This document shows positions 9,222 through 35,683 of a stretch of DNA of 64,000 nucleotides, piece by piece. The number at the start of each line of letters is the position of its first letter. Within the stretch, counting starts at the first letter, position 1. The notes beneath the pieces were generated by a model. That model did not search any database. It was not told the origin of the DNA and saw only the letters and a list, made by a program, of their open reading frames with translations. The DNA comes from an uncultured Candidatus Saccharibacteria bacterium (lineage in GTDB: Bacteria; Patescibacteriota; Saccharimonadia; Saccharimonadales; JAGQNJ01): assembly GCA_964590205.1 (NCBI GenBank), contig CAZPVO010000002.1, forward strand, positions 1,005 to 65,004, written 5' to 3'. A program made the translations under genes and the position numbers.

Positions 9222-10973
9222 TTGAGACATTGTAGTGGAGGAGACGTGGCGGAGCATCTAAATGTACCACATGGAGGGAAACTTGTAGATCTGATGGCCA
9301 GTGGATCATCAGCCGCCAAGTTAAAAAAGCAGGCTGTTAATTTCAAAAGTTGGGATTTAACTCCAAGGCAGTTATGCGATGTTGAAATGTTGGTGTCTGG
9401 CGCCTTTTCGCCCCTCACTGGCTTTATGAATAAAAAGGAGTACGAGAGCGTCTGCAAAGACATGCGCTTATCCGACGGCACTCTATGGCCCATGCCAATC
9501 ACGCTCGATGTTGATGATAAGTTTGCCAAGGACTTAAAAAAAGGTGTTCGTGTCGCGCTCCGAGATCAAGAAGGAGTCATCCTGGCCGTGCTAGAAGTTG
9601 GTGATGTGTGGAAGCCAAACAAAAGTAAAGAAGCGAAGTCAGTGTTCGGTACAAATGATCAAAATCACCCAACCGTGCAATACTTGCACCACAAATCACA
9701 CGACACATATGTAGGCGGCAAAATAACTGGGCTAGAGCTACCTCGTTACTACGACTTCAGTGAACTGAGATATACGCCAGTCGAGCTTCGCGAACATTTC
9801 AAGAAGCTGGGCTGGACCAAGGTAGTGGCCTTTCAAACCCGAAACCCTATGCACCGAGCACACGTTGAATTAGCACTTCGGGCAGCAAAGCAAACGCAAG
9901 CAAACCTACTCATACATCCGGTTGTGGGTATGACAAAACCGGGAGACGTTGATCATTACACACGTGTGCGAGTCTACCAGGCAGTCCTAAAGAAGTTCCC
10001 CAAGTCCACGGCTATGATCTCGCTTTTGCCGCTCGCCATGCGCATGGGTGGCCCGCGAGAAGCACTCTGGCATATGATTATCCGCAAAAATTATGGAGTA
10101 ACTCATTTTATTATTGGCCGTGATCATGCCGGACCGGGTAAAAACTCAAAAGGTAATGATTTTTATGAACCATATGATGCACAGCAACTGGCAGCCAAGT
10201 ATGCCAAGGAAATAGGTGTAAAGGTAATTCCCTTCCAAATGATGGTGTTCGTACCAGAACATGACGTGTACATGCCAATTGATGAAGTTCCTGATGGAGC
10301 GGAATATCTGAGTATTTCGGGAACTGAACTCAGGGCAAGACTCGCTGATGGTCGGCCATTGCCAAAGTGGTTCACCTACCCCGAGGTGGAAGTAGAGCTT
10401 CGCAAAACCTATAAACCGCGACCCAAACAAGGCTTGGCAATATTTTTCACCGGCCTTTCTGGTGCTGGAAAATCGACAATTGCCAATGCCTTGATGGTAA
10501 AACTTATGGAACAAGGAAAGCGAACTGTGACGCTGCTTGATGGTGATCATGCCCGCAAGCATCTGTCCTCAGAACTCGGGTTTAGTAAAGAGCACCGAGA
10601 TCTTAACGTAGCACGAATTGGCTTCGTAGCGAGTGAAATCTCAAAGCATGGCGGAATCGCACTCTGCACCCCTATCGCACCCTACGATAAAATTCGCAAA
10701 AAGGTTCGTACCATGGTTCGAGAAAGTGGCGGAAACTTTGTGCTGGTATATGTCGCGACACCGCTCGAAGAATGTGAAAAAAGAGATCGCAAAGGTCTCT
10801 ATGCAGCAGCACGAACTGGTAAGCTCAAAGCATTTACCGGAGTTTCCGACCCTTACGAGACTCCGGCCGACGCCGAGCTAGTGCTTAATACTGTTGGCTT
10901 TAGTCCTGACGAACTGGCAAACCGCATCTTGCTGTATCTCGAAAAAGAAGGTTTCTTGGAGACTACAACATAA
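9222..10973 (+). CDS. bifunctional sulfate adenylyltransferase / adenylylsulfate kinase (PAPS synthesis)
   Basis: ATP-sulfurylase motifs FQTRNPMHRAH and IIGRDHAGPG. C-terminal APS-kinase motifs FFTGLSGAGKST and LLDGDHAR. The exact start is uncertain (ATG 9222 or nearby GTG). Confidence 0.9.
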   Translation: MRHCSGGDVAEHLNVPHGGKLVDLMASGSSAAKLKKQAVNFKSWDLTPRQLCDVEMLVSGAFSPLTGFMNKKEYESVCKDMRLSDGTLWPMPITLDVDDKFAKDLKKGVRVALRDQEGVILAVLEVGDVWKPNKSKEAKSVFGTNDQNHPTVQYLHHKSHDTYVGGKITGLELPRYYDFSELRYTPVELREHFKKLGWTKVVAFQTRNPMHRAHVELALRAAKQTQANLLIHPVVGMTKPGDVDHYTRVRVYQAVLKKFPKSTAMISLLPLAMRMGGPREALWHMIIRKNYGVTHFIIGRDHAGPGKNSKGNDFYEPYDAQQLAAKYAKEIGVKVIPFQMMVFVPEHDVYMPIDEVPDGAEYLSISGTELRARLADGRPLPKWFTYPEVEVELRKTYKPRPKQGLAIFFTGLSGAGKSTIANALMVKLMEQGKRTVTLLDGDHARKHLSSELGFSKEHRDLNVARIGFVASEISKHGGIALCTPIAPYDKIRKKVRTMVRESGGNFVLVYVATPLEECEKRDRKGLYAAARTGKLKAFTGVSDPYETPADAELVLNTVGFSPDELANRILLYLEKEGFLETTT

Positions 10974-11042
10974 GGTACAATAAAACATAAGCATACGAGG
11001 AACAGTTGTTGTAATGAAAGAACTTCCCAGCGAGAAACAAAT
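10974..11042 (+). promoter_or_regulatory. conserved cassette leader 1 with 10-codon uORF (MKELPSEKQI)
   Basis: GGTACAATAAAACATAAGC block. The uORF 11014-11046 has its TGA overlapping the main ATG (ATATGA). Homologous to the leaders at 13224 and 15398. Confidence 0.5.
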
Positions 11043-12344
11043 ATGAGCAGGCTTCCAACTCCTGGTAGTGACAGCGGTAATTGGGGCGATATACTTAATG
11101 ACTTTTTGAGTCAGTCTATTAGTAGTGATGGAACACTAAAATCTAGTGCGGTATCTACAGCTGGTACTAATAGCTTTGTAAGTAAAACTGGCGATACTAT
11201 GTCGGGCGGGTTGATGGTAGCTATAAAAGCAGCGGCCGGTGGGACAGAGACAGCTACGCTAGGTACTGGCTCTGCATTTGGTGCAGGATACATCAGTGCA
11301 ACCTCTGGTCGCACAGCACTTCTTAAGTCGTCTGGCCCTGGATCATGGGCAGGCGGATACGTCTCTGGGGCGAGTGGAGTCGACGCTACACTCAGGTCTG
11401 ACACTAGCCAAGCTGCTTTCTCATTTGGCTCAATCAAAAAAGGTGGTGCTATCGAATCGTTGAATGAAGGTACCTGGGCTGGAGGCTATGCTTACTCGGG
11501 CGGTGCGGTTCGAGCCATTGCACAAGGTTCACAGGCTTTTGGCTATACCTACGGATCAACCACACTAATCAGATCTAATGCTCAGGGTGGTCATGCTTCT
11601 GGTGGTGCTTGGACATCAGGATCAATCAAAGCAAGTGGGTACGGATCTATTTCTCATGGCTACTCTAAGGGTGCCAGTTCAACGGTTTATGCTTCAGGAT
11701 CAGGTGCACAAGCATGGGGTTATGCATATGCAAGTGGCTCTGTATTGGCTCAATCACAAGGGACTCAAGCCACTGGCTTTGCAAGTGGTTCAAACGCTCG
11801 AGTATCTGCAGTTGGCAGAGGAGGCTTTGCTGGTGGATATGCACGATCGTCTGGGCAAGTAAGAACTACGAATAACGGTTCCTTTTCGCATGGCTATGCT
11901 AAAAATTTAAGTGCAGTAATTGAAGCAACCGGCTGGGGCTCGTTCGCACAGGGCTACACTCTCTCTGCAGGTGTCATCACATCAAGTGGTTATGGCAGCA
12001 TGGCGAGAGGAAGCTCGATTGGTGCAAGTAGTGCCATTACAGCTAGCAATGCTGGATCCTTTGCCAGTGGCTATTCAAAAAACAGCGGTACCATTGTTGC
12101 TTCAGCCAAGGGCGCCTTTGCTCACGGCTATGCCTCATCCGGCACTACCGTTACTGCTTCAGCAGCAAACTCGTTCCAATTCGGTAAAGGTACTAACTCT
12201 ACCGCCGATTCACTTCGTGTCGGTGTAGGAATTCGATTGTTCGGCACAGTTGCAACACCGGGCTCACCGGCAAATGGCGATGTTTGGCTTGACCCAGATG
12301 GGCATGTTAAAATACGTTCAAATGGCTCAACTATCTCACTGTAA
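11043..12344 (+). CDS. tail-fibre-like repeat protein, shared N-terminal module (paralogue 1)
   Basis: N-terminus MSRLPTPGSDSGNWGDILNDFL is shared with ORFs 13291 and 15468. The body is a long run of ~19-20-aa G/S/A-rich repeats (..GS.A.GY...S......AS..). No signal peptide. Confidence 0.65.
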   Translation: MSRLPTPGSDSGNWGDILNDFLSQSISSDGTLKSSAVSTAGTNSFVSKTGDTMSGGLMVAIKAAAGGTETATLGTGSAFGAGYISATSGRTALLKSSGPGSWAGGYVSGASGVDATLRSDTSQAAFSFGSIKKGGAIESLNEGTWAGGYAYSGGAVRAIAQGSQAFGYTYGSTTLIRSNAQGGHASGGAWTSGSIKASGYGSISHGYSKGASSTVYASGSGAQAWGYAYASGSVLAQSQGTQATGFASGSNARVSAVGRGGFAGGYARSSGQVRTTNNGSFSHGYAKNLSAVIEATGWGSFAQGYTLSAGVITSSGYGSMARGSSIGASSAITASNAGSFASGYSKNSGTIVASAKGAFAHGYASSGTTVTASAANSFQFGKGTNSTADSLRVGVGIRLFGTVATPGSPANGDVWLDPDGHVKIRSNGSTISL

Positions 12345-12362: not shown

Positions 12363-13166
12363 ATGAAGGGTATTCACATGCTCTGTGGTTTGCCGCGAGC
12401 AGGCTCAACGTTGCTTGCAAATGTACTCGAGCAGCATCCTGATCTGTGGGTATCGGGCACTTCATCTCTATCACCATGCGTCCAATCAGTTTCTCAATGT
12501 TTATCCAATAATGAAGAAGTAAAATCAGAACTTTCTGTTGATCCACAATATTATGAGCGTTACAGAACTGGTATGTGCAGTTTCGCGGAGGGCTGGTACA
12601 AAGACGTTAACTCAACAGTCATCGATAAGGGGCGCCTTTGGACCTCAATGCGACCGCTGGTAGATGAGCTTTGGCCAAAAGCAAAATTTATTGTGTGCGT
12701 CAGAGATCCCCGTGATGTGATTGCCTCTGTTGAGAGCCGACATCGTGATACGGCACTGTTTATGCAAGATGGTGACCAAACGCTTTATGAATCTGCAGAA
12801 AACTTTATGAAAAAGGACGCTATGGTTGGTGGTCCAATGTGGCATATTGAGGATCTTATTCGCAGGCAAATGACCAAAAACATTGTTTTTGTAAGATATG
12901 AGTCGTTTGTTGTTAATCCACAACTGACTATGGACGAACTTTCTGACACGCTCAAACTCAAGTCATTCAAATGGAATTTCAAGAACGTTAAAAATCGTCA
13001 GCGTGATGCTGATGCGATTTGGAAGCAAAAATTTCCACATACCGGTGATGGATCGGTCAAAGCAAAAATTGGCTCTTGGCGTGATGTAATGGATAAGGAA
13101 CTTGCCGATAAGATCGTAAACGTCTATCCCCTGTACGCAACAACCTTTGGGTACAAAGAAGACTGA
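12363..13166 (+). CDS. PAPS-dependent sulfotransferase
   Basis: 5'-PSB-like GLPRAGSTLL near the N-terminus and 3'-PB-like VRDPRDVIASV. Begins 19 nt after the fibre gene. Confidence 0.75.
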   Translation: MKGIHMLCGLPRAGSTLLANVLEQHPDLWVSGTSSLSPCVQSVSQCLSNNEEVKSELSVDPQYYERYRTGMCSFAEGWYKDVNSTVIDKGRLWTSMRPLVDELWPKAKFIVCVRDPRDVIASVESRHRDTALFMQDGDQTLYESAENFMKKDAMVGGPMWHIEDLIRRQMTKNIVFVRYESFVVNPQLTMDELSDTLKLKSFKWNFKNVKNRQRDADAIWKQKFPHTGDGSVKAKIGSWRDVMDKELADKIVNVYPLYATTFGYKED

Positions 13167-13223
13167 TCTTGAACTTAGAGAACCGTATCTGTTCATAATT
13201 GCTGGTGTGTCCTTCCTCTAGTT

Positions 13224-13290
13224 GGTACAATAAACCATAAGCTCGTGAGGGCAAATTTTGGTATGAAGAAAAAAACTTTGAGGATAATAA
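13224..13290 (+). promoter_or_regulatory. conserved cassette leader 2 with 11-codon uORF (MKKKTLRIINE)
   Basis: GGTACAATAAACCATAAGCTCGTGAGGGCA block. The uORF 13263-13298 ends 2 codons into the main ORF. SD GAGGA lies inside the uORF. Confidence 0.5.
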
Positions 13291-13941
13291 ATGAGTAGGC
13301 TACCAACACCGGGTGGTGATGCCGGTAACTGGGGTGATATTCTTAATGACTTTTTAGATCAGTCGCATAATAGTGATGGGACATTAAAAGACAGTGCTGT
13401 TTCAAGTTCCGCATTGCTGAAAAGCAATAATTTGAGTGATGTGAGTTCAACGAGCTCTGCACGCACAAATCTAGGCTTAGGTGATTCGGCCACCAAAAAT
13501 GTTGGCTCAATTGCCGGTACGGTTGCTGCCGGTAATGACAGCCGCTTAAGCGATACTCGTGTGCCGACTGATGGGTCTGTAACGCCTACTAAGTTGGACC
13601 GTGGCTACACTGAATCAAAAAACGGTGGTAAAGAGGGCATCCAAGCCCACGGCAGTACAGGATCGGCTGTCACCATTAATCTTGCCAACGGCAATGTCCA
13701 CACAGCCACCCAAAACCAATCCTGCACATACACCTTTACTGGCGCCACCAGCAGTACATCCTGTTCGTTTCTATTAATACTTGGTGGCGTAACCGGCATC
13801 CCAACCTGGCCGGTAAACGTAAAGTGGGCCAATGGCAGCATCCCAACAATATCAGGAGAATGCATTCTAACTTTTGTAACAGTTGATGGCGGAACTAATT
13901 GGTATGGGTCATTGGTAGGCAATGACTTTGCAACAGCTTAG
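13291..13941 (+). CDS. tail-fibre-like protein, shared N-terminal module (paralogue 2)
   Basis: N-terminus MSRLPTPGGDAGNWGDILNDFLDQSHNSDGTLK. The C-terminus (...ILTFVTVDGGTNWYGSLVG) resembles phage fibre or receptor-binding tips. No signal peptide. Confidence 0.65.
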   Translation: MSRLPTPGGDAGNWGDILNDFLDQSHNSDGTLKDSAVSSSALLKSNNLSDVSSTSSARTNLGLGDSATKNVGSIAGTVAAGNDSRLSDTRVPTDGSVTPTKLDRGYTESKNGGKEGIQAHGSTGSAVTINLANGNVHTATQNQSCTYTFTGATSSTSCSFLLILGGVTGIPTWPVNVKWANGSIPTISGECILTFVTVDGGTNWYGSLVGNDFATA

Positions 13942-13947
13942 TAAACA

Positions 13948-15348
13948 ATGAGAACAACTGCGCTAAAACTAATAACTTCATCGCTTCTGGCCTCGCAACG
14001 ATTTGAGAACAACGTTTTGCGGCTTAATCCAACACTTTATTTACCGATGCAAGAATCTGCGGGCGAAACAACTTATCAAGACCTGACTTACAACGGTCAC
14101 GATGCGATCGAAAAACAAGCCGGCCACCAAACAAATGGCCAAACTGGTGGCTATGGCCGGTTGGCTGTTAAGTTCGACGGCACGTCACTCTCTGGGCTAA
14201 CAATACCTGAAACGCCAGAGATTGCGATGACAGCCAGCGGGTCCGAAAAAGTCTCAGTTATGTGTTTGTTTAAGGCCAACGGCAATGGTGGTTACTTAGT
14301 AACTCAAGATAATGGTGGTAATCGGCCGTGGGTAACAAGTGTGCAGGACAAACTATACGGCTACGCCAACAACCAATCTGGACCAGGACTTTATACCGAC
14401 AATGATTATCGAAGTGACGGCAAGTTTCACCTATTTATTGCCACTATGGACGATGGCACGAATGAGTGTAAACATTACGTCGATGGATTGGCCACGACAG
14501 TACTGGGAGGAACTCTTGGCCCTTTTCAAGCAACTAATGGCTCAACGCCAATTCAGATTGGTACCAATGTGGTCAACGATTTTCGATTCGATGGCTGGAT
14601 AAGTGACGTCGCTGTTTGGTATGGCGGTATTCTCACCGAAGACAATGTAGCCGAACTGTATAAAAATCTTATATACGGCAGTGGTTCTGCGTATGCCTAC
14701 CGCACAGCCGTGCTGACCGACGCGCCCTCATACTTATGGGTTGGTGATGATGCCTCCGGTGATTTTCAGGAATACAATAACGGGCCGGCCCTCACCCACC
14801 AAACCGGCACCATTAGATATCGCTTTGATGCGATTACAGCTGGCGAGCTTGTAGCTCAAGGTAGTGGATCAGCAGGCGCGCCTTCGCACTTTTCAACCAC
14901 CAATTCAGGCCCGCCGTCGGCAATCAGTGGTTCAGAATGGACCATGGAATGCTTGTTTAGGCAGCCAGGTGGCAACGACTCCGGCAGATTAGCATTTTAT
15001 ATTGGCGATTCTAGTTCGAATGGTGCTGGTATTTATGTTAATGGGCCAAGTGCCAACTTGCCCGTCCTGGGTTTATTGGGCGGTGTGGCTTTTGTTGGCA
15101 GTTCAACAAACATCAGTAAGGGTCCGGCACATCACCTTGTTTTGCGTCGCAAAGCTGGAGTAGTTTCACTTTGGGTTGACGGAGTTTCCGTAGCCACAAG
15201 CAGTTCAACACCAAACGCTCCTAGTAACGTTACAGAAATTTATCCTCATAGCGACAATGCAAACACCTATGGAACAATCGCCTTTACGGCAGTTTATAAC
15301 TCAGCTCTCTCAGACGCCCGAATAGCCATCCACGCCGCGGCAATGTAA
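13948..15348 (+). CDS. double LamG / concanavalin-A-like lectin domain protein
   Basis: Two LamG-type terminal motifs (FDGWISDVAVWYGGILTEDNVAELY; IAFTAVYNSALSDARI). Starts 7 nt after paralogue 2. Confidence 0.6.
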   Translation: MRTTALKLITSSLLASQRFENNVLRLNPTLYLPMQESAGETTYQDLTYNGHDAIEKQAGHQTNGQTGGYGRLAVKFDGTSLSGLTIPETPEIAMTASGSEKVSVMCLFKANGNGGYLVTQDNGGNRPWVTSVQDKLYGYANNQSGPGLYTDNDYRSDGKFHLFIATMDDGTNECKHYVDGLATTVLGGTLGPFQATNGSTPIQIGTNVVNDFRFDGWISDVAVWYGGILTEDNVAELYKNLIYGSGSAYAYRTAVLTDAPSYLWVGDDASGDFQEYNNGPALTHQTGTIRYRFDAITAGELVAQGSGSAGAPSHFSTTNSGPPSAISGSEWTMECLFRQPGGNDSGRLAFYIGDSSSNGAGIYVNGPSANLPVLGLLGGVAFVGSSTNISKGPAHHLVLRRKAGVVSLWVDGVSVATSSSTPNAPSNVTEIYPHSDNANTYGTIAFTAVYNSALSDARIAIHAAAM

Positions 15349-15397
15349 CGACCGGGGAATCAACACTTATCCTAGCTCTCACTAATGTTCTCTGTTA

Positions 15398-15467
15398 GAC
15401 TAGTAACCATAAGCTCTTGAGGGCATGTTTTGCTATGAAAGAAAAAATACTTAGGATACAAAACTAG
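15398..15467 (+). promoter_or_regulatory. conserved cassette leader 3 with 10-codon uORF (MKEKILRIQN)
   Basis: TAGTAACCATAAGCTCTTGAGGGCA block. The uORF 15435-15467 has its TAG directly abutting the main ATG. Confidence 0.5.
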
Positions 15468-16820
15468 ATGAGTAGATTACCAACTCCAGGAAGTGATGCC
15501 GGTAACTGGGGTGATATTCTTAATGACTTTTTAGATCAGTCGCATAACTCTGATGGAAGTCTAAAAAGTTCAGCCGTAACAGCTGCAGGCGGTGATTCAA
15601 GCACTAAAGTTAGCAAGTCTGGCGACACCATGACAGGCGGCTTACATGTTGATGATGGGGGTGGAGCAACATCAGATCTTGAAGCTGGTGCACTATACGT
15701 TAGTACGAATGATGGTCTACATCAGGCTTCTCTTAATTCGTCATACCTTTCAATTTCCGATACCACCACCGGTAATAATGTCGGGGGCTTTTTTGGGCAG
15801 GACGGCAAAGCTCTACTCTTTGGCGCAAGTACAAGCGACTATGCCTATGTTTCGGCACTGTCGACGGATTTTCAAGTTCGCTGGCAAGTCTTGCACGACG
15901 GATCAATCAGTTGGGGTGATGGATCGGCTTCCCCCGATACGGTCATATCTCGGACGGCTGCAAACACACTGTCAATGGGAGCCGGTGACAAGCTCCAACA
16001 AAATGCAGCGCCGACTACCGGTGATGACCTGACCAATAAAACCTATGTCGATAGCACGGCTGGTTCTCCGTCAGCCGCGGTCATTCTGGCTCCTGGATCT
16101 TCCACTAGAAATATTATCCAGCCTAGCGGCAACTTTAAGCCGCTCATTGTTCGTGGTCATTCAACCCAAGCCACTTCCCTACTTGAACTTCAAAACAGTA
16201 CCCCCACAGCCCTCTTTACAGTTGCCTCTGATGGTGCAGTTACTATGGCCAGCTCAGTCACTCACAGTTTGGGTGCAAGCACCGTTGTCAATCACTCAGG
16301 AGGTTTATATCAAGGACGGCAAGTTAAAGTTGACGGGTATTTTTCTAATACTTCAGGTAATCCACCGGGTGTCGGATTAATACGCTTAAATAACGCTGAG
16401 GTTATTGCTTGGCGCAATGCCGGCAATTCTGCTGATTACACACTTACGGTTGATAGTACTGATCAACTCGTGACAACAACAGGTGTGACGGCAAGTGGAC
16501 AAGTAACTGATCATCAGAACATTAATGCACAGACCGGCACAACGTATACGCTTGTTATTGGTGACGACGGCAAAATAATTACACTGAGTAATGCCTCGGC
16601 GATTACACTGACGGTGCCAACTAATGCTTCGGTGGCCTTTCCGATAGGTACGCGTATTGATCTGATTCAAAAAGGAGCTGGACAAGTAACTGTTGCTGCT
16701 GCAGGTGGAGTAACGATTAATGCGACACCGGGGCTTAAAGCACGTGCCCAATATTCTGCCGCCACACTTATTAAAGAGGCTACGAACACTTGGTACTTGG
16801 TTGGAGACCTGAGTGCATGA
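15468..16820 (+). CDS. tail-fibre-like protein, shared N-terminal module (paralogue 3)
   Basis: N-terminus MSRLPTPGSDAGNWGDILNDFLDQSHNSDGSLK. C-terminus ...FPIGTRIDLIQKGAGQVTV...NTWYLVGDLSA is phage minor-tail-like. No signal peptide. Confidence 0.65.
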   Translation: MSRLPTPGSDAGNWGDILNDFLDQSHNSDGSLKSSAVTAAGGDSSTKVSKSGDTMTGGLHVDDGGGATSDLEAGALYVSTNDGLHQASLNSSYLSISDTTTGNNVGGFFGQDGKALLFGASTSDYAYVSALSTDFQVRWQVLHDGSISWGDGSASPDTVISRTAANTLSMGAGDKLQQNAAPTTGDDLTNKTYVDSTAGSPSAAVILAPGSSTRNIIQPSGNFKPLIVRGHSTQATSLLELQNSTPTALFTVASDGAVTMASSVTHSLGASTVVNHSGGLYQGRQVKVDGYFSNTSGNPPGVGLIRLNNAEVIAWRNAGNSADYTLTVDSTDQLVTTTGVTASGQVTDHQNINAQTGTTYTLVIGDDGKIITLSNASAITLTVPTNASVAFPIGTRIDLIQKGAGQVTVAAAGGVTINATPGLKARAQYSAATLIKEATNTWYLVGDLSA

Positions 16821-18550
16821 GTGCCTATCCACTAGGGGTAGTTGCATCTGAATTAAATCGGCACACCAATGCCCCACTCGGTCCGTGGGCCGAAGGTGGC
16901 GACGTAGTGTTCATCGACGGCTGGGAAATCCACACCTTCACTGGTAACGGCACGCTCACCGTGCTACGAGACACGAATGCTGACTATCTCGTGGTCGGTG
17001 GTGGTGGCGGAGGCAGCGTCGGTGGTGGTGGAGCCGGTGGTCTACTCACAGGTACCGACACAGTATTGGTTGGCGACCTGCCGGTCACGGTCGGAGCAGG
17101 AGGTGCAGGCGAAACGTCGTCTGCCGACAACGCTGGAACTGGCAGCAACTCGGTCTGGAACGGTCACACTGCTCTTGGGGGTGGTGCAGGAGGTTTTATC
17201 GGTAATGGCCATCCCGGAGGCTCGGGTGGCGGTGGTGGTGGCATAGGCGGAGGTGGTGGCGGAGCTGGCACTGTCGGCCAAGGCAATAATGGTGGTGGCC
17301 CTGGCGGAGGCACATGTGGAGCGGGTGGTGGTGGTTCTGGCGCAGTTGGACAGCAGGCTAATCCATCGGGTGGAGACGGGCATGGCGGTGACGGTGGCGC
17401 AGGGACGTCATCGTCAATCTCTGGTTCATCTGTCGATTATGCCGGAGGCGGGGGTGGTGGTGGCACCGCTTCCCAAGGTAATGGCGCTGCAGGGGGCGGC
17501 AACGGGGCCAATTTCGGACCAGGTGCACCGGCCGCAGCAAATACCGGTAGTGGTGGTGGTGGTATCTATTCGGCATCACCTGGTGGTGCTGGAGGAAGTG
17601 GCGTCGTAATCCTGAGGGCACTCGGTTCACCTCGCCCTGACCCACCGTCTGCGCTGGTACTCACTCCCGGAGCAACGTCGATAGACGTCGCATGGACTAA
17701 CTCTCCATCTGGCAATGTCGACCACTATGAGTACCGAGTCAGTCATGACGGCGGTTCGACATGGTCGCCTGACTGGACGACAACTCCGTCTGGCTCGCCG
17801 TTCACAATAAGTGGCCTGACAGCAGGCACCGAGTACACGGTTGCTCTGCGCGCAGTCGACACTGATGCCATTGCATCAACGGTGATCAGCGACACAGCAT
17901 CGACGCCGAGTACCTACGATGCACTCATGGCAGGGCTGATCTCCAATCCACTTGATGTTTATTACCCTATGACCGAGACAAGCGGAACCACTATTCAAGA
18001 TTCGTCGGGTAATGGACTTAATCTAACCGCCTCGGCAACAATTGTTGGAGATGGTACATCAATCCAGTTCGATGGAAATTATGACGCTTCGCGAGCATTG
18101 GCATTTACCTCAGCTTTCCATGCACCCAAAACCGAGATCGTGTGGCTCAAAACCTCAACAGTTGTTGATACGCTTGCGATGCTCATGTGGCGTACCCCTG
18201 GTGGTGGCGATGCAGGCGGTTTATTTCTTAACTTCGTCGGTGATGACGGCAACGCCGAACTGTATCTGAACAGTGGAGCTCGCGGTGCTTGGGGTGGCAA
18301 TGCACTAAATAATAACCAGTGGCATATGCTCGCTTTTGTTCATGATGTTGGATTTGACTACTCAGTCTATCTCGATGGTGTTGCCGTGCGAGCAGGTGGC
18401 GGTGACGGTATTGGTTCGAGCAATGCCACCACCTTGTTTGTCGCTAGCAACGACGGCATCCAAAAGTTCATCGGTAGCCTTCGCCGAGTGTCTGTACTAC
18501 ACACACTACTCAGTGACTCGGACATCGCCGCGTTGTGGGCTGCTGGGTAA
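16817..18550 (+). CDS. glycine-rich domain / fibronectin-III / LamG protein
   Basis: ATGA overlap with paralogue 3. DYLVVGGGGGGS... poly-Gly domain ending GGSGVVILR, an FN3 segment (...YEYRVSHDGGSTWS...TEYTVALRAVD), and a LamG-type end (FIGSLRRVSVLHTLLSDSDIAALW). Confidence 0.65.
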   Translation: MSAYPLGVVASELNRHTNAPLGPWAEGGDVVFIDGWEIHTFTGNGTLTVLRDTNADYLVVGGGGGGSVGGGGAGGLLTGTDTVLVGDLPVTVGAGGAGETSSADNAGTGSNSVWNGHTALGGGAGGFIGNGHPGGSGGGGGGIGGGGGGAGTVGQGNNGGGPGGGTCGAGGGGSGAVGQQANPSGGDGHGGDGGAGTSSSISGSSVDYAGGGGGGGTASQGNGAAGGGNGANFGPGAPAAANTGSGGGGIYSASPGGAGGSGVVILRALGSPRPDPPSALVLTPGATSIDVAWTNSPSGNVDHYEYRVSHDGGSTWSPDWTTTPSGSPFTISGLTAGTEYTVALRAVDTDAIASTVISDTASTPSTYDALMAGLISNPLDVYYPMTETSGTTIQDSSGNGLNLTASATIVGDGTSIQFDGNYDASRALAFTSAFHAPKTEIVWLKTSTVVDTLAMLMWRTPGGGDAGGLFLNFVGDDGNAELYLNSGARGAWGGNALNNNQWHMLAFVHDVGFDYSVYLDGVAVRAGGGDGIGSSNATTLFVASNDGIQKFIGSLRRVSVLHTLLSDSDIAALWAAG

Positions 18551-26237: not shown

Positions 26238-26314
26238 GGCGGCGTAGCTCAGCCGGTTAGAGCGCAGGACTCATAAGCCTGAGGTCACAGGTTCGATCCC
26301 TGTCGCCGCTACCA
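26238..26314 (+). tRNA. tRNA with CAT anticodon (elongator Met or lysidine-dependent Ile2)
   Basis: GGCGGCGTAGCTCAGCCGGTTAGAGCGCAGGACTCATAAGCCTGAGGTCACAGGTTCGATCCCTGTCGCCGCTACCA. Cloverleaf elements, T-loop GGTTCGATCC, encoded CCA. Confidence 0.9.
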
Positions 26315-28613: not shown

Positions 28614-28688
28614 AGCGGGGTGGAGCAGCGGCAGCTCGCGTGGCTCATAACCACGAGGTCGCAGGTTCGAGTCCTGCCCCCGCAACCA
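28614..28688 (+). tRNA. initiator-type tRNA-Met (CAT)
   Basis: AGCGGGGTGGAGCAGCGGCAGCTCGCGTGGCTCATAACCACGAGGTCGCAGGTTCGAGTCCTGCCCCCGCAACCA. Closely resembles E. coli tRNA-fMet (GCGGGGTGGAGCAGC...CCCCGCAACCA) and has an unpaired 1:72 position. Confidence 0.85.
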
Positions 28689-30237
28689 AGTAAGAATTTA
28701 AAGCCCTTTCGGGGGCTTTTTGTATTGAAATACATCTGTAAAGCTCGCTTATTTCTGAGGTTCCAAACTTATGGCTTGATGAGTCATACACTACACCCCT
28801 TGGGAACAACATGCTTTGGAACCTAATTTGCAAGTCAACCTCTGAAGAAGCCCATTGCTTGTCTACATTCTCCATAACGTTTATAGCTTGCTCAATGTCG
28901 GTTTCACGAATCATTTGCTGTTGTTCTAGCTTTGTTAAGTCAGATGTCACTTCAAGCTTTTGATTATCTAGGTCGGCTATATACGCGTCTTTCTCGTCTT
29001 TTGTAAGTTCTTCAGCAACGAACTTATCAATTGCCTTACTTCGCAGTTCGGATATTTTGTTTAGCTTTTCTCTGCTCAGGCCTATCCTTACATTAAGACT
29101 ATCTAGTGCAGCATTAGACTCTTTAACAAGTACGTGCTTATAAACCTTCAAGATTTCGCTAGAGGGTTTAATTTTTTCGAGCATCTTTTCAAACTCGTTG
29201 TGTACTATGTCCGCCTTCACCGACGGAACTTTACCAACACATGACTTTCGAGCACAGTGATACCTTGGAGATGACTGTCCATTACCCGTGGTTGGTGCAG
29301 ATGAGTATAGTGATTTATTACAATTACGGCATAGCAACAAACCACGTAAAGGATACCTGCTGTTTATGTGGTCATGTCTTTCACCTTTTCGAGAGTTTTC
29401 ACCATAAAGCAGGTTATGATTTCGTTTAAAGACTTCCTCACTAATAATGGCAGGGTGCTTACCTTGGACATTTTTGTAGTTTGTAAACTTATCCGATACA
29501 TAACCTGCATACGTCGGGTTCTTTATTAGCCTATGTATACTGTCTTCGCCTAAGAATTTATCATATCGGCTCTTAAGCCCAACTTGCTTTGCATAACGTG
29601 TGAGCTCAGCCTTTGAAATATCACCAACACTAAATCTTTCCAATACACTCTTTACTTTATCAGCCATAGGTGTCTTTCTAAGTGTTGGTCTTAGCTTGCC
29701 TAAATCATTAGGAATTTTATTAGGCAAATAGCCAACAATAGGTGGGTGCTGATAGAACCCCTGCATTGCTAATGAACGCATGTTATCAATTGTCACTTCA
29801 GCTTTTCCTTCATTATCAAGTTGGCCAAGAGCAACAAGCAGATTTTCCATAAACCTCCCCTCTTTTGTGTCGTTAACAGCTGGTTCTGTTGCTGACCGAA
29901 TCGTTATCCCGCTTGCCCTCAACACGAGTTTGACGTTGGTGGTGTATGAATCGTTATCACGAGAGGCTCGCTTCATGTTGTAAACAACCCAGTGGTTTAT
30001 TTCAGACTTGTGTTTAATGCAGTAGTTCAGCAGTGCTTGTAATCCATCACGCTCTGTATTCTTGCCAGACTTAGCAATATCTTCAAACCATTTAACTATG
30101 TGTATATTGTTTAGGTCAGCAAATCTCTGAATACTGTCACGTTGCGTAATAGGACTTTCGTTATTTACCTGCCTTTGTGACGATATCCTTATGTAAGCGA
30201 CTGCTTTTTTCTTGGACTCATTCATACTTGTTTCCAT
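28645..30237 (-). CDS. large serine recombinase (integrase)
   Basis: Resolvase catalytic N-terminus AVAYIRISSQRQ, a recombinase domain, a zinc ribbon CRNC...RYHCARKSC, and a coiled-coil. The last ~15 codons are antisense to the tRNA. Confidence 0.9.
   Translation of the reverse strand: METSMNESKKKAVAYIRISSQRQVNNESPITQRDSIQRFADLNNIHIVKWFEDIAKSGKNTERDGLQALLNYCIKHKSEINHWVVYNMKRASRDNDSYTTNVKLVLRASGITIRSATEPAVNDTKEGRFMENLLVALGQLDNEGKAEVTIDNMRSLAMQGFYQHPPIVGYLPNKIPNDLGKLRPTLRKTPMADKVKSVLERFSVGDISKAELTRYAKQVGLKSRYDKFLGEDSIHRLIKNPTYAGYVSDKFTNYKNVQGKHPAIISEEVFKRNHNLLYGENSRKGERHDHINSRYPLRGLLLCRNCNKSLYSSAPTTGNGQSSPRYHCARKSCVGKVPSVKADIVHNEFEKMLEKIKPSSEILKVYKHVLVKESNAALDSLNVRIGLSREKLNKISELRSKAIDKFVAEELTKDEKDAYIADLDNQKLEVTSDLTKLEQQQMIRETDIEQAINVMENVDKQWASSEVDLQIRFQSMLFPRGVVYDSSSHKFGTSEISELYRCISIQKAPERALNSYLVAGAGLEPATSWL
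28699..28722 (+). terminator. intrinsic terminator after tRNA-fMet
   Basis: AAAGCCC-tttc-GGGGCTTT followed by TTG. Confidence 0.6.
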
Positions 30238-30766: not shown

Positions 30767-31159
30767 TTATCTGGTCTTTAAATATTTCTTATTTCTGTTG
30801 TAGTATTTTTGTAAGTCAAATTCAGTTAAGAAGGGATATTCGCCATCAAAGTATGGTATCTCGTCGTTCGCATATGCTTCATGTATGTTTTTAAATGTTA
30901 GTTTACGTTTCCTTAAGAAATACACGCCATATAGTAAAACAAGGTCTTTCGGTGGCTTCACTCTTTTATAGTGCTTTTTCCCTGTTACTTTTGCACGTGC
31001 ATCACTAAACGTATCCCATGCCTGAAGAAACTCTTCCTTCGTAGCATCAATCCCAAATGAAATAATAAATTTCTGCTTCTCAACGTCGTAGTCCATTCCT
31101 ATATTTTTATTTGGAATGTTCTTTTTCATTTTGAACCAGAGCTTTAACCGAAGCTCCAC
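30767..31159 (-). CDS. hypothetical protein (up to 130 aa), element-borne
   Basis: ORF only. The start is uncertain (internal Met at MKKNIPNK). Confidence 0.45.
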   Translation of the reverse strand: MELRLKLWFKMKKNIPNKNIGMDYDVEKQKFIISFGIDATKEEFLQAWDTFSDARAKVTGKKHYKRVKPPKDLVLLYGVYFLRKRKLTFKNIHEAYANDEIPYFDGEYPFLTEFDLQKYYNRNKKYLKTR

Positions 31160-31484
31160 CTAGTATGGGTTTTACCTCTTGTAATGTATGTTCAAAATCA
31201 TGTTTTAGACTAAATTCGTCTTTCTTTTTTCTTTCTAGATACTTTAATGCCAAGTCAGGACTTTTCTCAAACGATTTAATAACAGAAGCTCTGGCTTTAA
31301 GAATTGGCATTTCTTTTAACTGTGTTTTTCGCTCCAGAAACTTTGGGTTCTTCTCTTGAAATTTATAGAGTGTTGCGGGGGCTATATTAGCATATAAGGT
31401 GGCTTCTAAGTCTGTACAGCCTAATGCAAACGCCTCTTCAAGCTTGCTTCTCACTTCGCTTGTCATTATTGTTGGTCTACCCAT
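31107..31484 (-). CDS. HTH protein, terminase-small-subunit-like / DNA-binding
   Basis: The ATG at 31484 is preceded by AGGAGGG. MGRPTIMTSEVRSKLEEAFALGCTDLEATLYANIAPATLYKF resembles N-terminal HTH domains of phage small terminase or transposase-associated proteins. Confidence 0.45.
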   Translation of the reverse strand: MGRPTIMTSEVRSKLEEAFALGCTDLEATLYANIAPATLYKFQEKNPKFLERKTQLKEMPILKARASVIKSFEKSPDLALKYLERKKKDEFSLKHDFEHTLQEVKPILGGASVKALVQNEKEHSK

Positions 31485-31500
31485 ATTTTTAACCCTCCTA

Positions 31501-32118
31501 TTAATGCAATGTCGTAGCGATGTCAACACACTCATTAATTGCTTGAGTATTGCTAACACCAACATATGAGGTGCATTGGTTTCTAGCATTATTACTGTCT
31601 GGTATATAAAAATATACGTAAAAGTATTCAGTTATAGGCTGGGCGTAGGTCTCTTTTGTAGAGTGCCCATCGCTGTACGTACAATTTTTACTCCAGCCGT
31701 TTACACCTTGAATATGTCCAGCACCGTTTCTATATAAAGAATGTGTCTCATACTGCACATCATTGTTGTTGGTACAACTTATAAGTGTTGGGCTAGAGAT
31801 AGTTTCCTGAGTTGGAGCTGACGGATTATTGCTACTAACTGAAGGTTTAATGCTACTACTTGTTGAAGACGATTGACTATTATTATCAGATTTTGTTGTT
31901 TGTGTTGTAGGATTGGTTGTAGTTGTCTTTTCTTTAGCATTAGGTTGTTCATTTGACGTTTGATTTTGGTTGCTTTGATTATTTAATGAATCATGGGATT
32001 TTAAGGCATAGATACCTACTGGCAGGGATATTAGCAATCCGAAAAATAGACCAATTAATAGCTTGGTGTTATTTTTAGTAACTTTTTTTATACCGCTAAG
32101 ATATTTCTTCACACCCAC
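31501..32118 (-). CDS. membrane-anchored/secreted protein with S/T/N-rich linker
   Basis: N-terminal TM helix (LLIGLFFGLLISLPVGIYAL), then a low-complexity QTSN/ST-rich stretch, then a Cys-containing globular end. Confidence 0.55.
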   Translation of the reverse strand: MGVKKYLSGIKKVTKNNTKLLIGLFFGLLISLPVGIYALKSHDSLNNQSNQNQTSNEQPNAKEKTTTTNPTTQTTKSDNNSQSSSTSSSIKPSVSSNNPSAPTQETISSPTLISCTNNNDVQYETHSLYRNGAGHIQGVNGWSKNCTYSDGHSTKETYAQPITEYFYVYFYIPDSNNARNQCTSYVGVSNTQAINECVDIATTLH

Positions 32119-32327: not shown

Positions 32328-32993
32328 CTAAGCAGCTACGGGCTTAAGCAACGATTTATCATTGTTCCTAGGGCTGTTTACGTCCCTGCTAACCTCATAG
32401 ATTTCTAGACCATTGTCTTCGAACGGAAACAGTAGTGACTCTAAGTTCTCAGGTTTGTCGTTTGATGGCTCAATCCAAGAAGCTTCGGCTTCAGGATGTA
32501 ATATCACTGGCATTCTATTGTGAATTGCCTTCATCTCTTTATTCGGTTCTGTGGTCATAATCGAATACGTTTTAATTTCATGACCATCTTTGCTTTTCCA
32601 ATTATCCCAGATCCCAGCAAAGGAATATAATTCGATCTTTTTAGGGTGAATGTAGAAGGGTATTTTGCCGTCTTTAGAAGCCCGCCACTCGTAGAAACCT
32701 GTGGCTGGCACTAAACATCGGTGATTTAGCACAGTACGCTTCCAGAAACCCCCAAAGGCCTTGTCAGCTCGAGTGTTAATAAGCTCTTTAACTAAGTCTT
32801 TTCCCAGCATACGCGGTATACCCCATTGCATGGTTTCAATACGCCGCTTTCCGGTTTCGTCTTCAATAATTACAGGCATTTCCTGTGAAGGCGACACATT
32901 GTAGTTTTCCCGAATGTCTTTCGGTTTGTTATCCACTTTAAAACGCTTCACAAGCTTTCCGGTTTTCACATCGAGTGTATAACGACCGCACAT
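32328..32993 (-). CDS. SOS-response-associated peptidase (SRAP / YedK-HMCES family)
   Basis: True start MCGRYTL (catalytic Cys2) at 32993. Family-typical ...FYEW... and ...MPVIL... motifs. Confidence 0.85.
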   Translation of the reverse strand: MCGRYTLDVKTGKLVKRFKVDNKPKDIRENYNVSPSQEMPVIIEDETGKRRIETMQWGIPRMLGKDLVKELINTRADKAFGGFWKRTVLNHRCLVPATGFYEWRASKDGKIPFYIHPKKIELYSFAGIWDNWKSKDGHEIKTYSIMTTEPNKEMKAIHNRMPVILHPEAEASWIEPSNDKPENLESLLFPFEDNGLEIYEVSRDVNSPRNNDKSLLKPVAA

Positions 32994-33019
32994 ACTACTA
33001 ATTGTACTAGGAGATTGTA

Positions 33020-33286
33020 ATGAGAGAAAAAGTAAATCAAGAAGTAAGCGTTGTGATGTACTATTCAGCCAAGAAAAAGCAGGCAGTGCCACACATGCTG
33101 TATTGGCAGAATAAGGACTATATGCTCGGCAAAGTTGATTATTACCACAACTACATGGAGGGACGGGAGAAACAACATATTTTCGAGTTGTGCGACAAAG
33201 ACACTTCGCTGTGGTTCAGGCTGAGGCTAGATAGCAGTAATTTACACTGGACGCTGGAGGCTATTAGCGATGGACTTGCAACTTAA
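33020..33286 (+). CDS. hypothetical protein (88 aa) preceding the Y-family polymerase
   Basis: ORF overlapping or abutting the polymerase start. Its position is analogous to UmuD/YolD-type accessory genes, but no motif was recognised. Confidence 0.45.
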   Translation: MREKVNQEVSVVMYYSAKKKQAVPHMLYWQNKDYMLGKVDYYHNYMEGREKQHIFELCDKDTSLWFRLRLDSSNLHWTLEAISDGLAT

Positions 33287-34932: not shown

Positions 34933-35050
34933 GTTCTAGTCCCCTGCGGTAGAGTAACTTAACTGTAGTTTTCCCCTAGAGAGCTGTAACCATCTTACTA
35001 GCTCCCAACTGATTTGGTTCCAATTCGAGTGTACGTGGGCAACCATAAGC
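34933..35050 (+). repeat. tRNA-fMet-like 118-nt repeat, copy 1
   Basis: Aligns end to end with copies at 36426 and 37243. Ends in GGTTCCAATTCGAGTGTACGTGGGCAACCATAAGC. Confidence 0.8.
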
Positions 35051-35055
35051 ATGTT

Positions 35056-35087: not shown

Positions 35088-35090
35088 CAC

Positions 35091-35630: not shown

Positions 35631-35683
35631 AGTTATTCCTTATTTCTTAACCTTGACATCCTAACAAACACATTCCATAACTA

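Follow-up and report, generated by a model that had tools for sequence, protein, structure and literature searches.

The 10-mer and its copies in the window

The window, by which we mean the whole 64-kb stretch of Saccharibacteria DNA analyzed here, contains the 10-mer AACCATAAGC in four exact copies, at 13233, 15405, 35041 and 36534, all on the + strand, just as the initial annotation had reported; shuffles of the window gave a mean of 0.19 copies, and none of 100 shuffles gave four. A one-mismatch form, AAACATAAGC, is present at 10983, also as reported, and occurs again at 28076, along with four further one-mismatch forms elsewhere in the window. Taken as a whole, one-mismatch matches are not enriched (10 observed versus 4.95 expected). 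Each copy had been placed just after a + strand gene, which is correct for 10983, 13233, 15405 and 36534 but not for 35041, where the nearest + strand gene (33270-34505) ends 536 nt before the site and a minus-strand HTH gene abuts it. Judged by their surroundings, the copies split into two unrelated repeat families, designated A and B, and the excess of the 10-mer arises because each of the two families gives two exact copies.

Leaders of the fibre-like genes

Family A is found at the starts of three fibre-like genes, with the following features:

10983-10992, + strand: one-mismatch copy AAACATAAGC, in the leader of the fibre-like gene starting at 11043
13224-13403, + strand: family A block, made up of a promoter-like box, a leader of about 50 nt and N-terminal coding sequence (MSRLPTPG...)
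13233-13242, + strand: 10-mer copy, in the leader of the fibre-like gene starting at 13291
15405-15414, + strand: 10-mer copy, in the leader of the fibre-like gene starting at 15468

Blocks paralogous to that at 13224-13403 are present at 10974-11155 and 15396-15580 (repeat families D2/D5/D8). In these leaders the 10-mer stands 1-3 nt past a -10-like box (at 13233, 1 nt past the extended -10-like TGGTACAAT), within a block that runs on into coding sequence. Family A is a duplicated block, promoter/leader plus N-terminal coding sequence, shared by three fibre-like genes that are paralogues, and it is this paralogy that preserves the 10-mer at 10983, 13233 and 15405. A promoter scan of the fibre leaders gave fewer sigma-70-like matches than the shuffle mean.

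The fibre homologue contexts that we collected (L114-L125) contain only eight distinct leaders. The pattern (A/G)TAAG(C/A) is present in fibre leaders of three other genomes, at a variable distance from the -10 box, and is missing from two of the eight leaders. In another genome (locus L064), a fibre gene adjoining a tRNA-fMet array has TAACCATAAG in its leader; a functional motif in fibre leaders, or an old insertion scar, is conceivable.

Family B and the array at 28-38 kb

The remaining two exact copies lie in an array that begins with an initiator-type tRNA-Met gene:

28614-28688, + strand: initiator-type tRNA-Met gene, ending in the 7-nt GCAACCA (28682-28688), which is the putative chromosomal attachment core, attL here
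28645-30237, - strand: large serine recombinase, matching PF00239 (E 5e-20), PF07508 (1e-7) and PF13408 (4e-5)
34930-35045, + strand: family B copy 1, body plus core GCAACCA (35039-35045); the 10-mer (35041-35050) is core end plus trailer
35056-35087, + strand: intrinsic terminator after copy 1, with which a terminator scan agrees
36423-36538, + strand: family B copy 2, body plus core (36532-36538); 10-mer at 36534-36543
36550-36576, + strand: terminator after copy 2, hairpin ACCTCTG...CAGAGGT plus T run
37240-37355, + strand: family B copy 3, closing the unit of a 201-aa gene
37364-37393, + strand: terminator after copy 3, hairpin plus T run
37406-37534, + strand: element T, structured and gene-less, closing the array

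The order in the window is therefore the tRNA, the recombinase element as far as copy 1, the units of copies 2 and 3, and the gene-less unit T. Family B was detected as a 135-nt repeat at 34930, 36423 and 37240 (repeat family D1); the element itself is about 115 nt and is followed by a terminator, giving about 150 nt with trailer and terminator included. Copy 1 is likely the right end (attR) of the recombinase element, and its trailer and terminator are of the type that related genomes have behind their initiator tRNA-Met gene. Copy 2 closes a unit consisting of the HTH gene (35091-35630, minus strand) and a 225-aa gene (35739-36416). Copy 3 has ACCAAGAAAA where the other copies have the 10-mer, and the left side of its core is tRNA-like, which a simple model does not foresee. 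Element T contains a hairpin and a tRNA-like T-arm into which 52 nt are inserted; its 3' end resembles that of tRNA-Met, but the CCA is mutated (GCAAAAAG). Family B copies in which ACCAAG continues past the core show an inverted repeat, CTTGG-GCWA-CCAAG.

Homology between family B and the tRNA gene covers the last 7 nt and the trailer only. A tRNA search of the window (ARAGORN and Rfam RF00005) found only three true tRNA-Met genes and no match to family B, and Rfam as a whole, searched against the window at gathering scores and against 34500-37700 at E <= 10, returned the three tRNA-Met genes plus noise, with no tRNA in 34500-37700. A possible colinear match of four blocks between family B and the whole tRNA (GCGGYAG, TAACCAY, GGTTC..GART and GCAACCA) was noticed and set aside.

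Linkage of family B to the initiator tRNA-Met gene

Family B is widespread among Saccharibacteria. A 19-mer from its core matched 33 genome loci with homologous flanks, about 26 of them in Saccharibacteria; a search of viral contigs did not find the core. The family B profile extended this to 187 copies, spread over 107 loci and arranged on the same strand in arrays that reach 7 copies, usually with one gene per unit. Neighbouring cassettes in the arrays include pilins, hydrolases, transporters and DNA-damage tolerance genes. All 75 tRNAs predicted in family B loci are tRNA-Met, and in nearly all loci having both, the initiator tRNA-Met precedes family B by 0.3-3 kb and shares its strand, a frequency that may be inflated because the loci were gathered with family B as bait. 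Most of these sequences are metagenome-assembled genomes, in which repeats are prone to misassembly. A conserved RRM-protein gene is found upstream of the tRNA in array loci. An apparent enrichment of A[AC]CATAAG (105 distinct contexts in 656 kb) was rejected, since the loci had been selected for family B. Our search of the literature found no paper describing these family B arrays.

The tRNA and family B have trailer and terminator types in common (for example in L012), and the exact 10-mer stands directly after the tRNA itself in four loci (L007, L037, L062 and L102). Trailers differ widely between genomes (AGTAAG..., AAATAAG..., TGAAAA...). In family B, the 10-mer consists of the final five tRNA bases (A-ACCA) and the first five bases of the trailer, and so would span the recombination core GCWACCA: AACCA comprises the closing base of the acceptor stem, the discriminator base and the terminal CCA, forming the right part of the core, and TAAGC is the start of the trailer, with the terminator next, as normally found behind an initiator tRNA-Met gene. 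At 35041 and 36534, then, the 10-mer would span the attachment core of integrative elements that target the 3' end of initiator tRNA-Met in Saccharibacteria, and family B (about 105 nt to the left of the core) would be the element-side arm of attP, and of attR after integration.

Two C-termini of the recombinase

The recombinase encoded next to the tRNA has Resolvase, Recombinase and Zn-ribbon domains, the same set being found in 205 homologue clusters. Its last 14 codons (LVAGAGLEPATSWL, followed by the stop) are read from the strand opposite the 3' part of the tRNA gene, and its stop codon is antisense to the anticodon loop. The overlap between the gene and the tRNA 3' end is 44 nt in all five homologue loci, with family B 5.5-9.8 kb further along, and the integrated copies have the C-terminus ...LVAGAGLEPATSWL, read antisense to the tRNA.

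Two C-terminal forms of the recombinase exist, as do circular contigs carrying it. Short homologues, which adjoin the tRNA in the loci examined, end in ...SYLVAGAGLEPATSWL; the long ones have ...SFLVAQVHSNWNLILEELSRWLQLNREVTGLVYSTAAD or a similar C-terminus. Two of the long forms are on circular contigs, one represented by identical 8,432-bp circles assembled in three different rotations and the other by a 6.3-kb contig with a 127-nt terminal overlap. On these circles (6.2 and 8.4 kb), the recombinase has the C-terminus ...LVAQVHSNWN...YSTAAD, antisense to family B, and neither of them (8,432 bp, about 6.2 kb) carries an initiator tRNA-Met gene. An in silico fusion of the window recombinase with copy 1, made at the core, yields an ORF of 552 aa with the long tail. 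The long tail ends in YSTA(A/G)D, with no obvious ssrA-like LAA. Since the recombinase frame crosses the core into family B, the circular form ends in a long tail; after integration at the tRNA, an 11-residue tail beyond the common LVA is read from the antisense strand of the tRNA. The tail swap might have a regulatory role.

Cassette mobility at the core

One pilin cassette occurs in two settings (93% identity): in L049 it follows the tRNA, in L006 a family B copy. The homology between the two begins exactly at GCTACCA and stops at the next core. A 3.7-kb block of units in L006 is missing in L054, and its edges are two family B copies with their cores. As read from these genome comparisons, cassette gain, loss and relocation break at the core that the 10-mer spans. 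From the homology breakpoints at GCWACCA we infer the position of the crossover to within a few bases, and the large serine recombinase is presumably the enzyme catalyzing these events. Repeated insertion at the tRNA core, along with recombination at family B cores, would give arrays of mostly single-gene units, each of which would end in family B, core and terminator.

A phmmer search with all ORFs of at least 120 aa from 113 loci identified a single tyrosine integrase, in L013, and a single serine recombinase, in L010; a recombinase gene lies within the fetched flanks in 2 of the 113 loci. Most arrays have no recombinase in these flanks. The gene-only units may move in trans, and homologous recombination between repeats could have produced some of the gains and losses of units.

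Are the fibre junctions related to family B?

The initial annotation held that a single repeat family bounds the fibre cassettes and the units of the element, with similarity extending into the flanks, and that this links the two loci, suggesting a shared recombination mechanism or a shared transcript boundary. Locally aligned with family B, the fibre junctions match over the 10-mer and only 2-6 nt more (p = 0.02-0.07 per pair). When the flanks are anchored on the 10-mer, both upstream and downstream, their scores are at chance level, with a best p of 0.066 (15405 versus 36534) and p = 0.12-0.93 for the other pairs. A family B profile built from 31 copies out of other genomes recovers all three window copies (E about 1e-29 to 1e-31) and gives no match at the fibre junctions at 10983, 13233 and 15405 (nhmmer --max, E <= 100). 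The similarity claimed beyond the 10-mer is accordingly what chance would give. The units of the integrative element do appear to end in family B, and a recombination role is upheld on that side, with family B as the probable element-side arm of the attachment site and breakpoints at the core; neither statement carries over to the fibre cassettes, which have only the 10-mer in common with family B, inside a duplicated leader. The proposed link between the fibre locus and the element should be dropped, and the fibre locus needs a separate explanation.

The identity of the 10-mer between the fibre leaders and the attachment core is most likely a coincidence. From the repeat lengths, a rough prior for repeats of about 60 nt and about 150 nt having a 10-mer in common is about 0.7%, and coincidence is plausible only because many pairs of repeats were open to the initial annotation. 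We consider it highly probable that AACCATAAGC represents two unrelated families, one being the attachment site of a tRNA-targeting serine recombinase element (35-37 kb) and the other a duplicated fibre leader.

We find it improbable that the fibre 10-mers represent degraded remnants of attachment sites, or secondary (pseudo-att) sites, for this recombinase, left by old insertions that promoter and leader evolution has overwritten. Such an origin would fit the position of the 10-mer at the 5' edge of every duplicated fibre module, and the f3 junction has CTAGCTCTC in common with family B, with the order kept; use of pseudo-attB sites by large serine recombinases is also known (PMC5937489). However, neither half-site keeps significant similarity, the displaced tRNA fragment and the terminator are absent, and the three junctions are mutually paralogous, so that they amount to one event rather than three.

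The single family with a single mobilization mechanism for both loci, as originally proposed, strikes us as quite improbable. The exact 10-mer is indeed common to both loci, on the same strand and at gene junctions, an extra block (15371-15386 versus 36491-36510, 22 of 27 matches with gaps) is suggestive, and the leader of the L064 fibre gene by the tRNA-fMet array could be taken the same way. Against it, in addition to the blank profile search and the chance-level flanks, the fibre junctions are without the GC of the core, a family B or tRNA-like arm, the recombinase-tail frame and a terminator, and their 10-mer follows a -10-like box in a block that extends into coding sequence.

Very little probability attaches to the motif being an RNA-level processing or boundary signal, ACCA/UAAGC, at tRNA 3' trailers and fibre mRNA 5' ends. 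The same sequence does follow the CCA end of tRNA-fMet in several genomes, and (A/G)TAAG(C/A) recurs in the three other genomes mentioned above, but the wide variation of the trailer between genomes argues that ACCA/UAAGC is not a conserved processing signal, and the leader cases are few, the motif short and a quarter of the leaders (two of eight) without it.

Coding capacity of the family B minus strand

On its minus strand, each family B copy in the window contains an open frame:

34936-35046, - strand: predicted alternative recombinase tail frame of copy 1, (M)VAHVHSNWNQISWELVRWLQLSRGKLQLSYSTAGD then stop; in frame with the recombinase across the core
36429-36539, - strand: tail frame of copy 2, (M)VAQVHSDWNHISRELVRWLQLSRGEPKISYSTAAD then stop
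37252-37356, - strand: tail frame of copy 3, (L)VAGVHSNWNLINRELVRWLQLSRVEHQLAYSTA then stop

Over about 33 residues this frame has the consensus QVHSNWNLILAELSRWLQL.R......YSTA.D, and it shares its phase with the recombinase gene, which runs across the core. Stops number 0 in the tail frame and 20-41 in the other frames. At position 18, all six Arg codons are used, while Trp19 is TGG in 69 of 71 copies, and column entropy over codons 11-25 increases from position 2 to position 1 to position 3. The family B minus strand encodes an alternative C-terminus for the large serine recombinase (28645-30237).

The same clear coding signature would be expected of an independent 36-aa gene, for instance a type I toxin or small regulator, convergent with the upstream gene; gene callers predict proteins of 30-92 aa here, and some copies have an ATG with GAGG 5 nt upstream. 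We regard such a gene as very unlikely. The commonest "start" is TTG (38 of 71 copies), without a ribosome-binding site, and 11 of the 71 copies have no ATG, TTG or GTG at all; the peptide is amphipathic rather than hydrophobic, and no Pfam or PHROG family was found for it. The independent gene, including a type I toxin-antitoxin system, was dropped on the strength of the frame, which runs on from the recombinase ORF in long-form homologues and circular contigs, its start, ribosome-binding site and hydrophobicity being likewise not those of such a gene.

A + strand non-coding RNA or 3' UTR element, such as a tRNA-like transcript end, is extremely unlikely even though family B is in every case located after the stop codon of a gene and before an intrinsic terminator on the + strand, and its 3' end is tRNA-like (a TTCGAAT loop-like sequence and GCAACCA), as there is no Rfam or tRNA-model match and the variation tracks codons of the opposite strand. 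A structured + strand RNA was rejected: the three window copies gave a weak fold, and 25 copies gave no consensus structure, only 4 trivial pairs at -0.45 kcal/mol (RNAalifold).

A possible gene-capture platform

Returning to the recombinase tail, we tentatively put forward a wider proposal, which we would not yet expect to hold in full: that an integron-like gene-capture platform, driven by the large serine recombinase, might operate at the initiator tRNA-Met of Saccharibacteria. The C-terminus of the enzyme would be rewritten at each event, with a long family B tail when the element is circular or joined to family B and a short tRNA-antisense tail at the tRNA, and the swap might act as an integration sensor that sets directionality or stability. 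Any family B copy could then be a partner site, and circles could move neighbouring cassettes between cells. Gene exchange by the recombinase agrees with the circular form observed and with the arrays, made up as they are of small captured cassettes.

Saccharibacteria, whose genomes are tiny and which rely on host bacteria, are difficult subjects for genetic manipulation. Their exchange of surface and accessory genes would be explained by a widespread recombinase that has one defined, universal target, namely the end of the initiator tRNA gene. As its short attP and attB sites can be read from sequence, the recombinase is also a candidate tool for integrating DNA into these organisms. A recombinase with a C-terminus that depends on its own integration would be a compact, testable switch, related to, yet distinct from, the phage BPs repressor and the archaeal integrases with an internal att site.

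Comparison with known systems

With large serine recombinase elements, the element in the window shares the Resolvase, Recombinase and Zn-ribbon domains, the position of the gene beside the attachment site, the short core, the presence of both integrated and circular (excised) forms, and a small element with a terminase-small-subunit-like gene. It departs from them in its target, the 3' end of a tRNA gene, and in the ORF crossing the core, which places attP within the 3' end of the recombinase gene itself. The Islander database (PMC4383910) describes tyrosine integrases as the enzymes that catalyze integration at tRNA genes.

In mycobacteriophage BPs, attP also lies inside an ORF, and the viral form of the product is 33 residues longer (PMC4557955); the element in the window gains about 22 residues in its circular form. 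Where attP is inside an ORF, integration alters the C-terminus of the product, and integrated and free forms do encode different C-termini in our case. The gene affected in BPs is the repressor, the integrase being separate, and its long tail serves as a degradation tag of the ssrA-like kind, with a demonstrated effect (PMC4557955), whereas here it is the serine recombinase itself that changes, and the short tail comes from the tRNA antisense strand. The archaeal SSV-type "suicidal" integrases are tyrosine recombinases with a gene disrupted by integration, and are found in archaea only (PMC8371274). The enzyme described here, by contrast, is a bacterial serine recombinase that keeps all of its domains and has only its last residues swapped.

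The resemblance to integrons lies in the cassette array with 3' recombination sites: mostly single-gene units each end in a conserved site of about 115 nt, a single fixed position on the chromosome serves as anchor for the array, and the same cassette stands at different array positions between genomes, with breakpoints inside the conserved site. Unlike integrons, these arrays have no IntI tyrosine recombinase beside them (phmmer, 113 loci), family B is not a folded imperfect palindrome of the attC hairpin kind (RNAalifold, 25 copies), each unit has its own terminator and apparently its own promoter, and the anchor is a tRNA gene.

Tandem islands at tRNA genes (Islander, PMC4383910) are similar in their repeated insertion at one tRNA, and in having a regenerated tRNA and displaced 3' fragments with trailer at the unit boundaries. 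Compared with that account, the units here are only 0.55-1.5 kb and mostly without an integrase, just 7 nt of the tRNA and the trailer are repeated, and the fragments are fused to a conserved arm that also encodes a recombinase tail.

The 10-mer and two repeat families

The 10-mer AACCATAAGC has four exact matches in the window, all on the + strand (13233, 15405, 35041 and 36534), as the initial annotation had correctly located and counted them. In dinucleotide-preserving shuffles it is expected 0.19 times per window on average and four copies were never reached; with one mismatch allowed, the window gives 10 hits against about five expected, and one such form, AAACATAAGC, lies at 10983 and again at 28076. 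Site reading and a repeat finder show that two repeat families account for the excess:

Family A: upstream of three paralogous fibre-like genes starting MSRLPTPG..., with ATG at 11043, 13291 and 15468
Family B: 135-nt repeat at 34930 (copy 1), 36423 (copy 2) and 37240 (copy 3), with a hairpin and T run after each copy

Family A copies become homologous at a -10-like box, GGTACAAT (the third copy has TAGACT), which precedes the 10-mer by a few bases, and stay so through a leader of ~50 nt into coding sequence. Copy 3 of family B reads ...CCCCCGCAACCAAGAAAAG, without the 10-mer.

It had been proposed that a single repeat family bounds both the fibre cassettes and the units of the integrative element, with similarity extending into the flanks. 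Three tests of this were negative. A family B profile built from 31 copies of other genomes recovers all three window copies (E about 1e-29 to 1e-31) and finds no match at the fibre junctions even at E <= 100 with all filters off. When each fibre junction was locally aligned to each family B copy, only the 10-mer and a few bases aligned (p = 0.02-0.07). When alignments were anchored on the 10-mer, scores for the 70 nt upstream and 50 nt downstream were at chance level, the best value (p = 0.066) coming from the very block at 15371 that had been cited for flanking similarity. Because the profile, local-alignment and anchored-flank tests are all negative, neither the common family nor the extended flanks can be upheld.

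Family B and the initiator tRNA-Met gene

The array containing family B in the window begins at the 3' end of an initiator tRNA-Met gene (28614-28688) and is laid out as follows:

28682-88: tRNA core (GCWACCA), start of the array
tRNA core to copy 1: recombinase element, with recombinase, terminase-small-subunit-like gene, SRAP peptidase and Y-family polymerase
Unit ending in copy 2: HTH gene and 225-aa gene
Unit ending in copy 3: 201-aa gene
Unit T: gene-less and structured, last in the array

ARAGORN, run on all loci, called 75 tRNAs, every one of them tRNA-Met (75/75). In nearly all loci having both features, family B is preceded at 0.3-3 kb, on the same strand, by a tRNA of initiator type (...TCGAGTCCTGCCCCCGCWACCA). 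The trailer and terminator types that follow the tRNA CCA match those that follow family B, and are nearly identical in L012, one of the loci fetched from other genomes and metagenomes. In four such loci (L007, L037, L062 and L102) the tRNA is followed by TAAGCAYT(T/A)TGACCTC..., and thus the exact AACCATAAGC is a tRNA end plus its trailer. The tRNA locus and family B become homologous precisely at GCWACCA. The trailer of the window tRNA differs, since the recombinase element now comes next, and the type found after the tRNA in relatives is retained behind copies 1 and 2.

The three tRNA genes of the window are all tRNA-Met (CAT), at 26238-26314, 28614-28688 and 42635-42710, and two or three CAT-anticodon tRNAs are clustered around the array in many related loci too. 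A gene for an RRM-domain protein adjoins the initiator tRNA-Met gene in several inspected loci (L006, L012, L017, L129 and L130). In one genome (L013:2251-3162) the gene that overlaps this initiator tRNA-Met at its 3' end encodes a tyrosine integrase and not a serine recombinase, and it too reads through the tRNA antisense; therefore at least two recombinase classes target this 3' end.

The recombinase and its two tails

The ORF at 28645-30237 (minus strand) encodes what is, by domain content, an ordinary large serine recombinase, and overlaps the tRNA gene over its final 44 nt. Its product has the C-terminus ...ALNSY-LVA-GAGLEPATSWL* (P0167), with LVA encoded by the core and the residues after it by the tRNA antisense strand. 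Homologues form at least 205 clusters. In all five of the homologue loci fetched, the recombinase gene overlaps the tRNA-fMet 3' end as in the window, with the first copy of family B 5.5-9.8 kb beyond it on the tRNA strand.

Two C-terminal forms are found among the homologues. The short form ends ...SYLVAG(A/P)GLEP(A/G)TSWL and has about 525-530 aa (up to 542 aa with a longer predicted N-terminus), and the long form has about 541-550 aa and ends, for example, ...SFLVAQVHSNWNLILEELSRWLQLNREVTGLVYSTAAD. One long form is encoded on 8,462-bp contigs from three samples; once a terminal overlap of 30 nt is trimmed, they are circles of 8,432 bp, identical (8432/8432) apart from their assembly rotation. 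Another is on a contig of 6,325 bp whose ends overlap by 127 nt. The circle and the 6,325-bp contig both lack an initiator tRNA-Met gene, and on each the recombinase ORF continues across the core into family B, whose frame has the same register relative to the core as the recombinase frame. Fused in silico at the core, the window recombinase and copy 1 form an ORF of 552 aa with the long tail. The tail forms, the circular contigs and this fusion argue that family B is the element-side arm of attP (attR once integrated) and also encodes the recombinase tail when the element is circular. Steps of the mechanism beyond this architecture are ones that we infer.

On the minus strand family B reads (M/L)VAQVHSNWNLILAELSRW.QL.R......YSTA.D*, and this frame has a clear coding signature. 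Across 71 distinct copies collected by codon-degenerate search, all six Arg codons occur at Arg18, and 69 of the 71 have TGG for Trp19. Column entropy over codons 11-25 is lowest at position 2, then position 1, then position 3. The frame has 0 stops vs 20-41 in other frames (in 20 copies chosen for an open frame), and its pN/pS is 0.61 vs 0.72-1.47. We rejected family B as an independent gene: most copies begin with TTG and have no ribosome-binding site, some copies have no start codon, and codons 1-10 are kept even at third positions (TCG 68/71, AAT 68/71, AAC 69/71), which also counts against it. Such nucleotide-level conservation beside the core would fit a recombinase half-site. No conserved RNA fold was detected in family B.

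One short element in the arm is nearly invariant, beyond what codons require:

35018-35025 (window example): 8-bp palindrome ATTCGAAT, containing TTCGAA, a restriction-type site; about 15 nt from the core; seen across all loci

The 8,432-bp circle (L131) also has an FtsK/SpoIIIE-like (DUF87) gene, a DUF3761 gene and, at 345-436, an odd 92-nt tRNA-Trp called by ARAGORN. Two more partial family B copies follow cargo genes on it, so circles can hold more than one unit.

Arrays and their cargo

The window belongs to a Saccharibacteria (candidate phyla radiation) genome, and in a search of one genome per species the invariant 19-mer of family B matched 33 loci, about 26 of them Saccharibacteria/Saccharimonadales with homologous flanks and several copies per locus. 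A metagenome scan with the peptide pattern added 80 further loci; viral contigs gave no match, and an Rfam search returned no family. The profile finds 187 copies across 107 loci, in a sample for which family B or the recombinase served as bait and which consists mostly of metagenome assemblies. Copies form same-strand arrays of up to seven, spaced 0.55-1.5 kb, mostly with one gene between them. The cargo is varied: type IV pilin-like genes are numerous, and short-chain dehydrogenases, hydrolases, transporters and kinases also occur.

L049 and L006 share a pilin cassette (93% identity): in L049 it immediately follows the tRNA, in L006 the third family B copy. The homology begins exactly at GCTACCA, preceded by tRNA sequence in the former and family B sequence in the latter, takes in the trailer and terminator, a promoter-like box, the gene and the body of the next family B copy, and ends at the next core. 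A 3.7-kb block of units in L006, bounded by two family B copies and cores, is absent from L054. Most arrays have no recombinase gene nearby; their gene-only units may either have been moved in trans or have been left after loss of the recombinase module.

Within the window's recombinase element, 31107-31589 (-) matches phage small terminase subunits (phrog_4102, E 2e-16) with no other phage structural genes near it, resembling phage satellites. Divergent genes for an SOS-response-associated peptidase and a Y-family DNA polymerase (32328-34505) are syntenic in another genome (L016/L130), which has a 454-aa SLFN/AlbA_2-domain gene between polymerase and family B. Its window counterpart is a 425-nt ORF-poor gap (34506-34929) that looks like a deletion.

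The simple model does not explain the tRNA-like core of copy 3 or element T. The usual sequence there is (C/T)TGGGCWACCA; the copy 3 site (37344-37357) departs from it and may be a hybrid from a recombination event or gene conversion. Element T (37406-37534, +) represents another conserved family, for which a profile gives 27 hits across the window and the fetched loci. Its 5' hairpin pairs CGGTTCTG(C/G)GAC with tRNA-like GTC(G/C)CAGGTTCG, and is followed by a structured insert of 50-60 nt in T-loop-like sequence and then a tRNA-fMet-like 3' end and trailer. Among 11 copies, compensatory changes occur in 10 of 24 predicted pairs. In the flanks inspected the element directly follows a terminator with no gene between, and the CCA end of the window copy is mutated. 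A decoy or spare attB is one possible role, a structured RNA another.

Comparison with known systems

What is unusual here is the tRNA-gene target, the very small array units and the placing of attP inside the recombinase's own 3' end, so that the tail is swapped on integration. In mycobacteriophage BPs, attP lies inside the repressor gene, with a 33-residue C-terminal difference and a demonstrated regulatory role (PMC4557955), and archaeal SSV-type integrases have the att site within int (PMC8371274). Islands accrete at tRNA genes and displaced tRNA fragments mark their ends, in the account of PMC4383910. Integrons are the closest known system in array logic, although their defining recombinase and folded attC are absent from the Saccharibacteria arrays. 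The searchable literature yielded no account of these arrays, which is not proof of absence.

The fibre junctions

In family A the 10-mer sits 1-3 nt 3' of the -10-like box, within a block duplicated with the N-terminal coding sequence of the gene. The second and third leaders are 80% identical, and therefore a perfectly kept 10-mer is unremarkable. Leaders of homologous genes elsewhere read TAACCATAAG (L064), GCGTAAGCGAGG (L121) and AGTAAGCATAATAGG (L125), and one in L120 has CCTATAAAC aligned to the window's CCATAAGC; the 10-mer is possibly part of a short leader or promoter motif in fibre genes. The fibre junctions have no core GC, family B arm, tail frame or terminator, and we found no evidence for recombination at them. 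Our reading is that their match to the attachment core is a coincidence, one that could be found because the initial annotation had many repeat pairs to compare; that it is instead a relic, a pseudo-site or a shared signal seems unlikely, even taking the three jointly.

Between 9222 and 18550 the three fibre-like genes are interspersed with sulfation and carbohydrate-related genes, which suggests modified surface fibres. Features of this region include:

9222-10973: fused ATP sulfurylase/APS kinase
12363-13166: sulfotransferase
13948-15348: LamG-domain protein
16790-18550: glycine-rich/fibronectin type III protein

Phage-like contigs (L123, with a terminase gene) also encode homologues of the fibre N-terminal domain.
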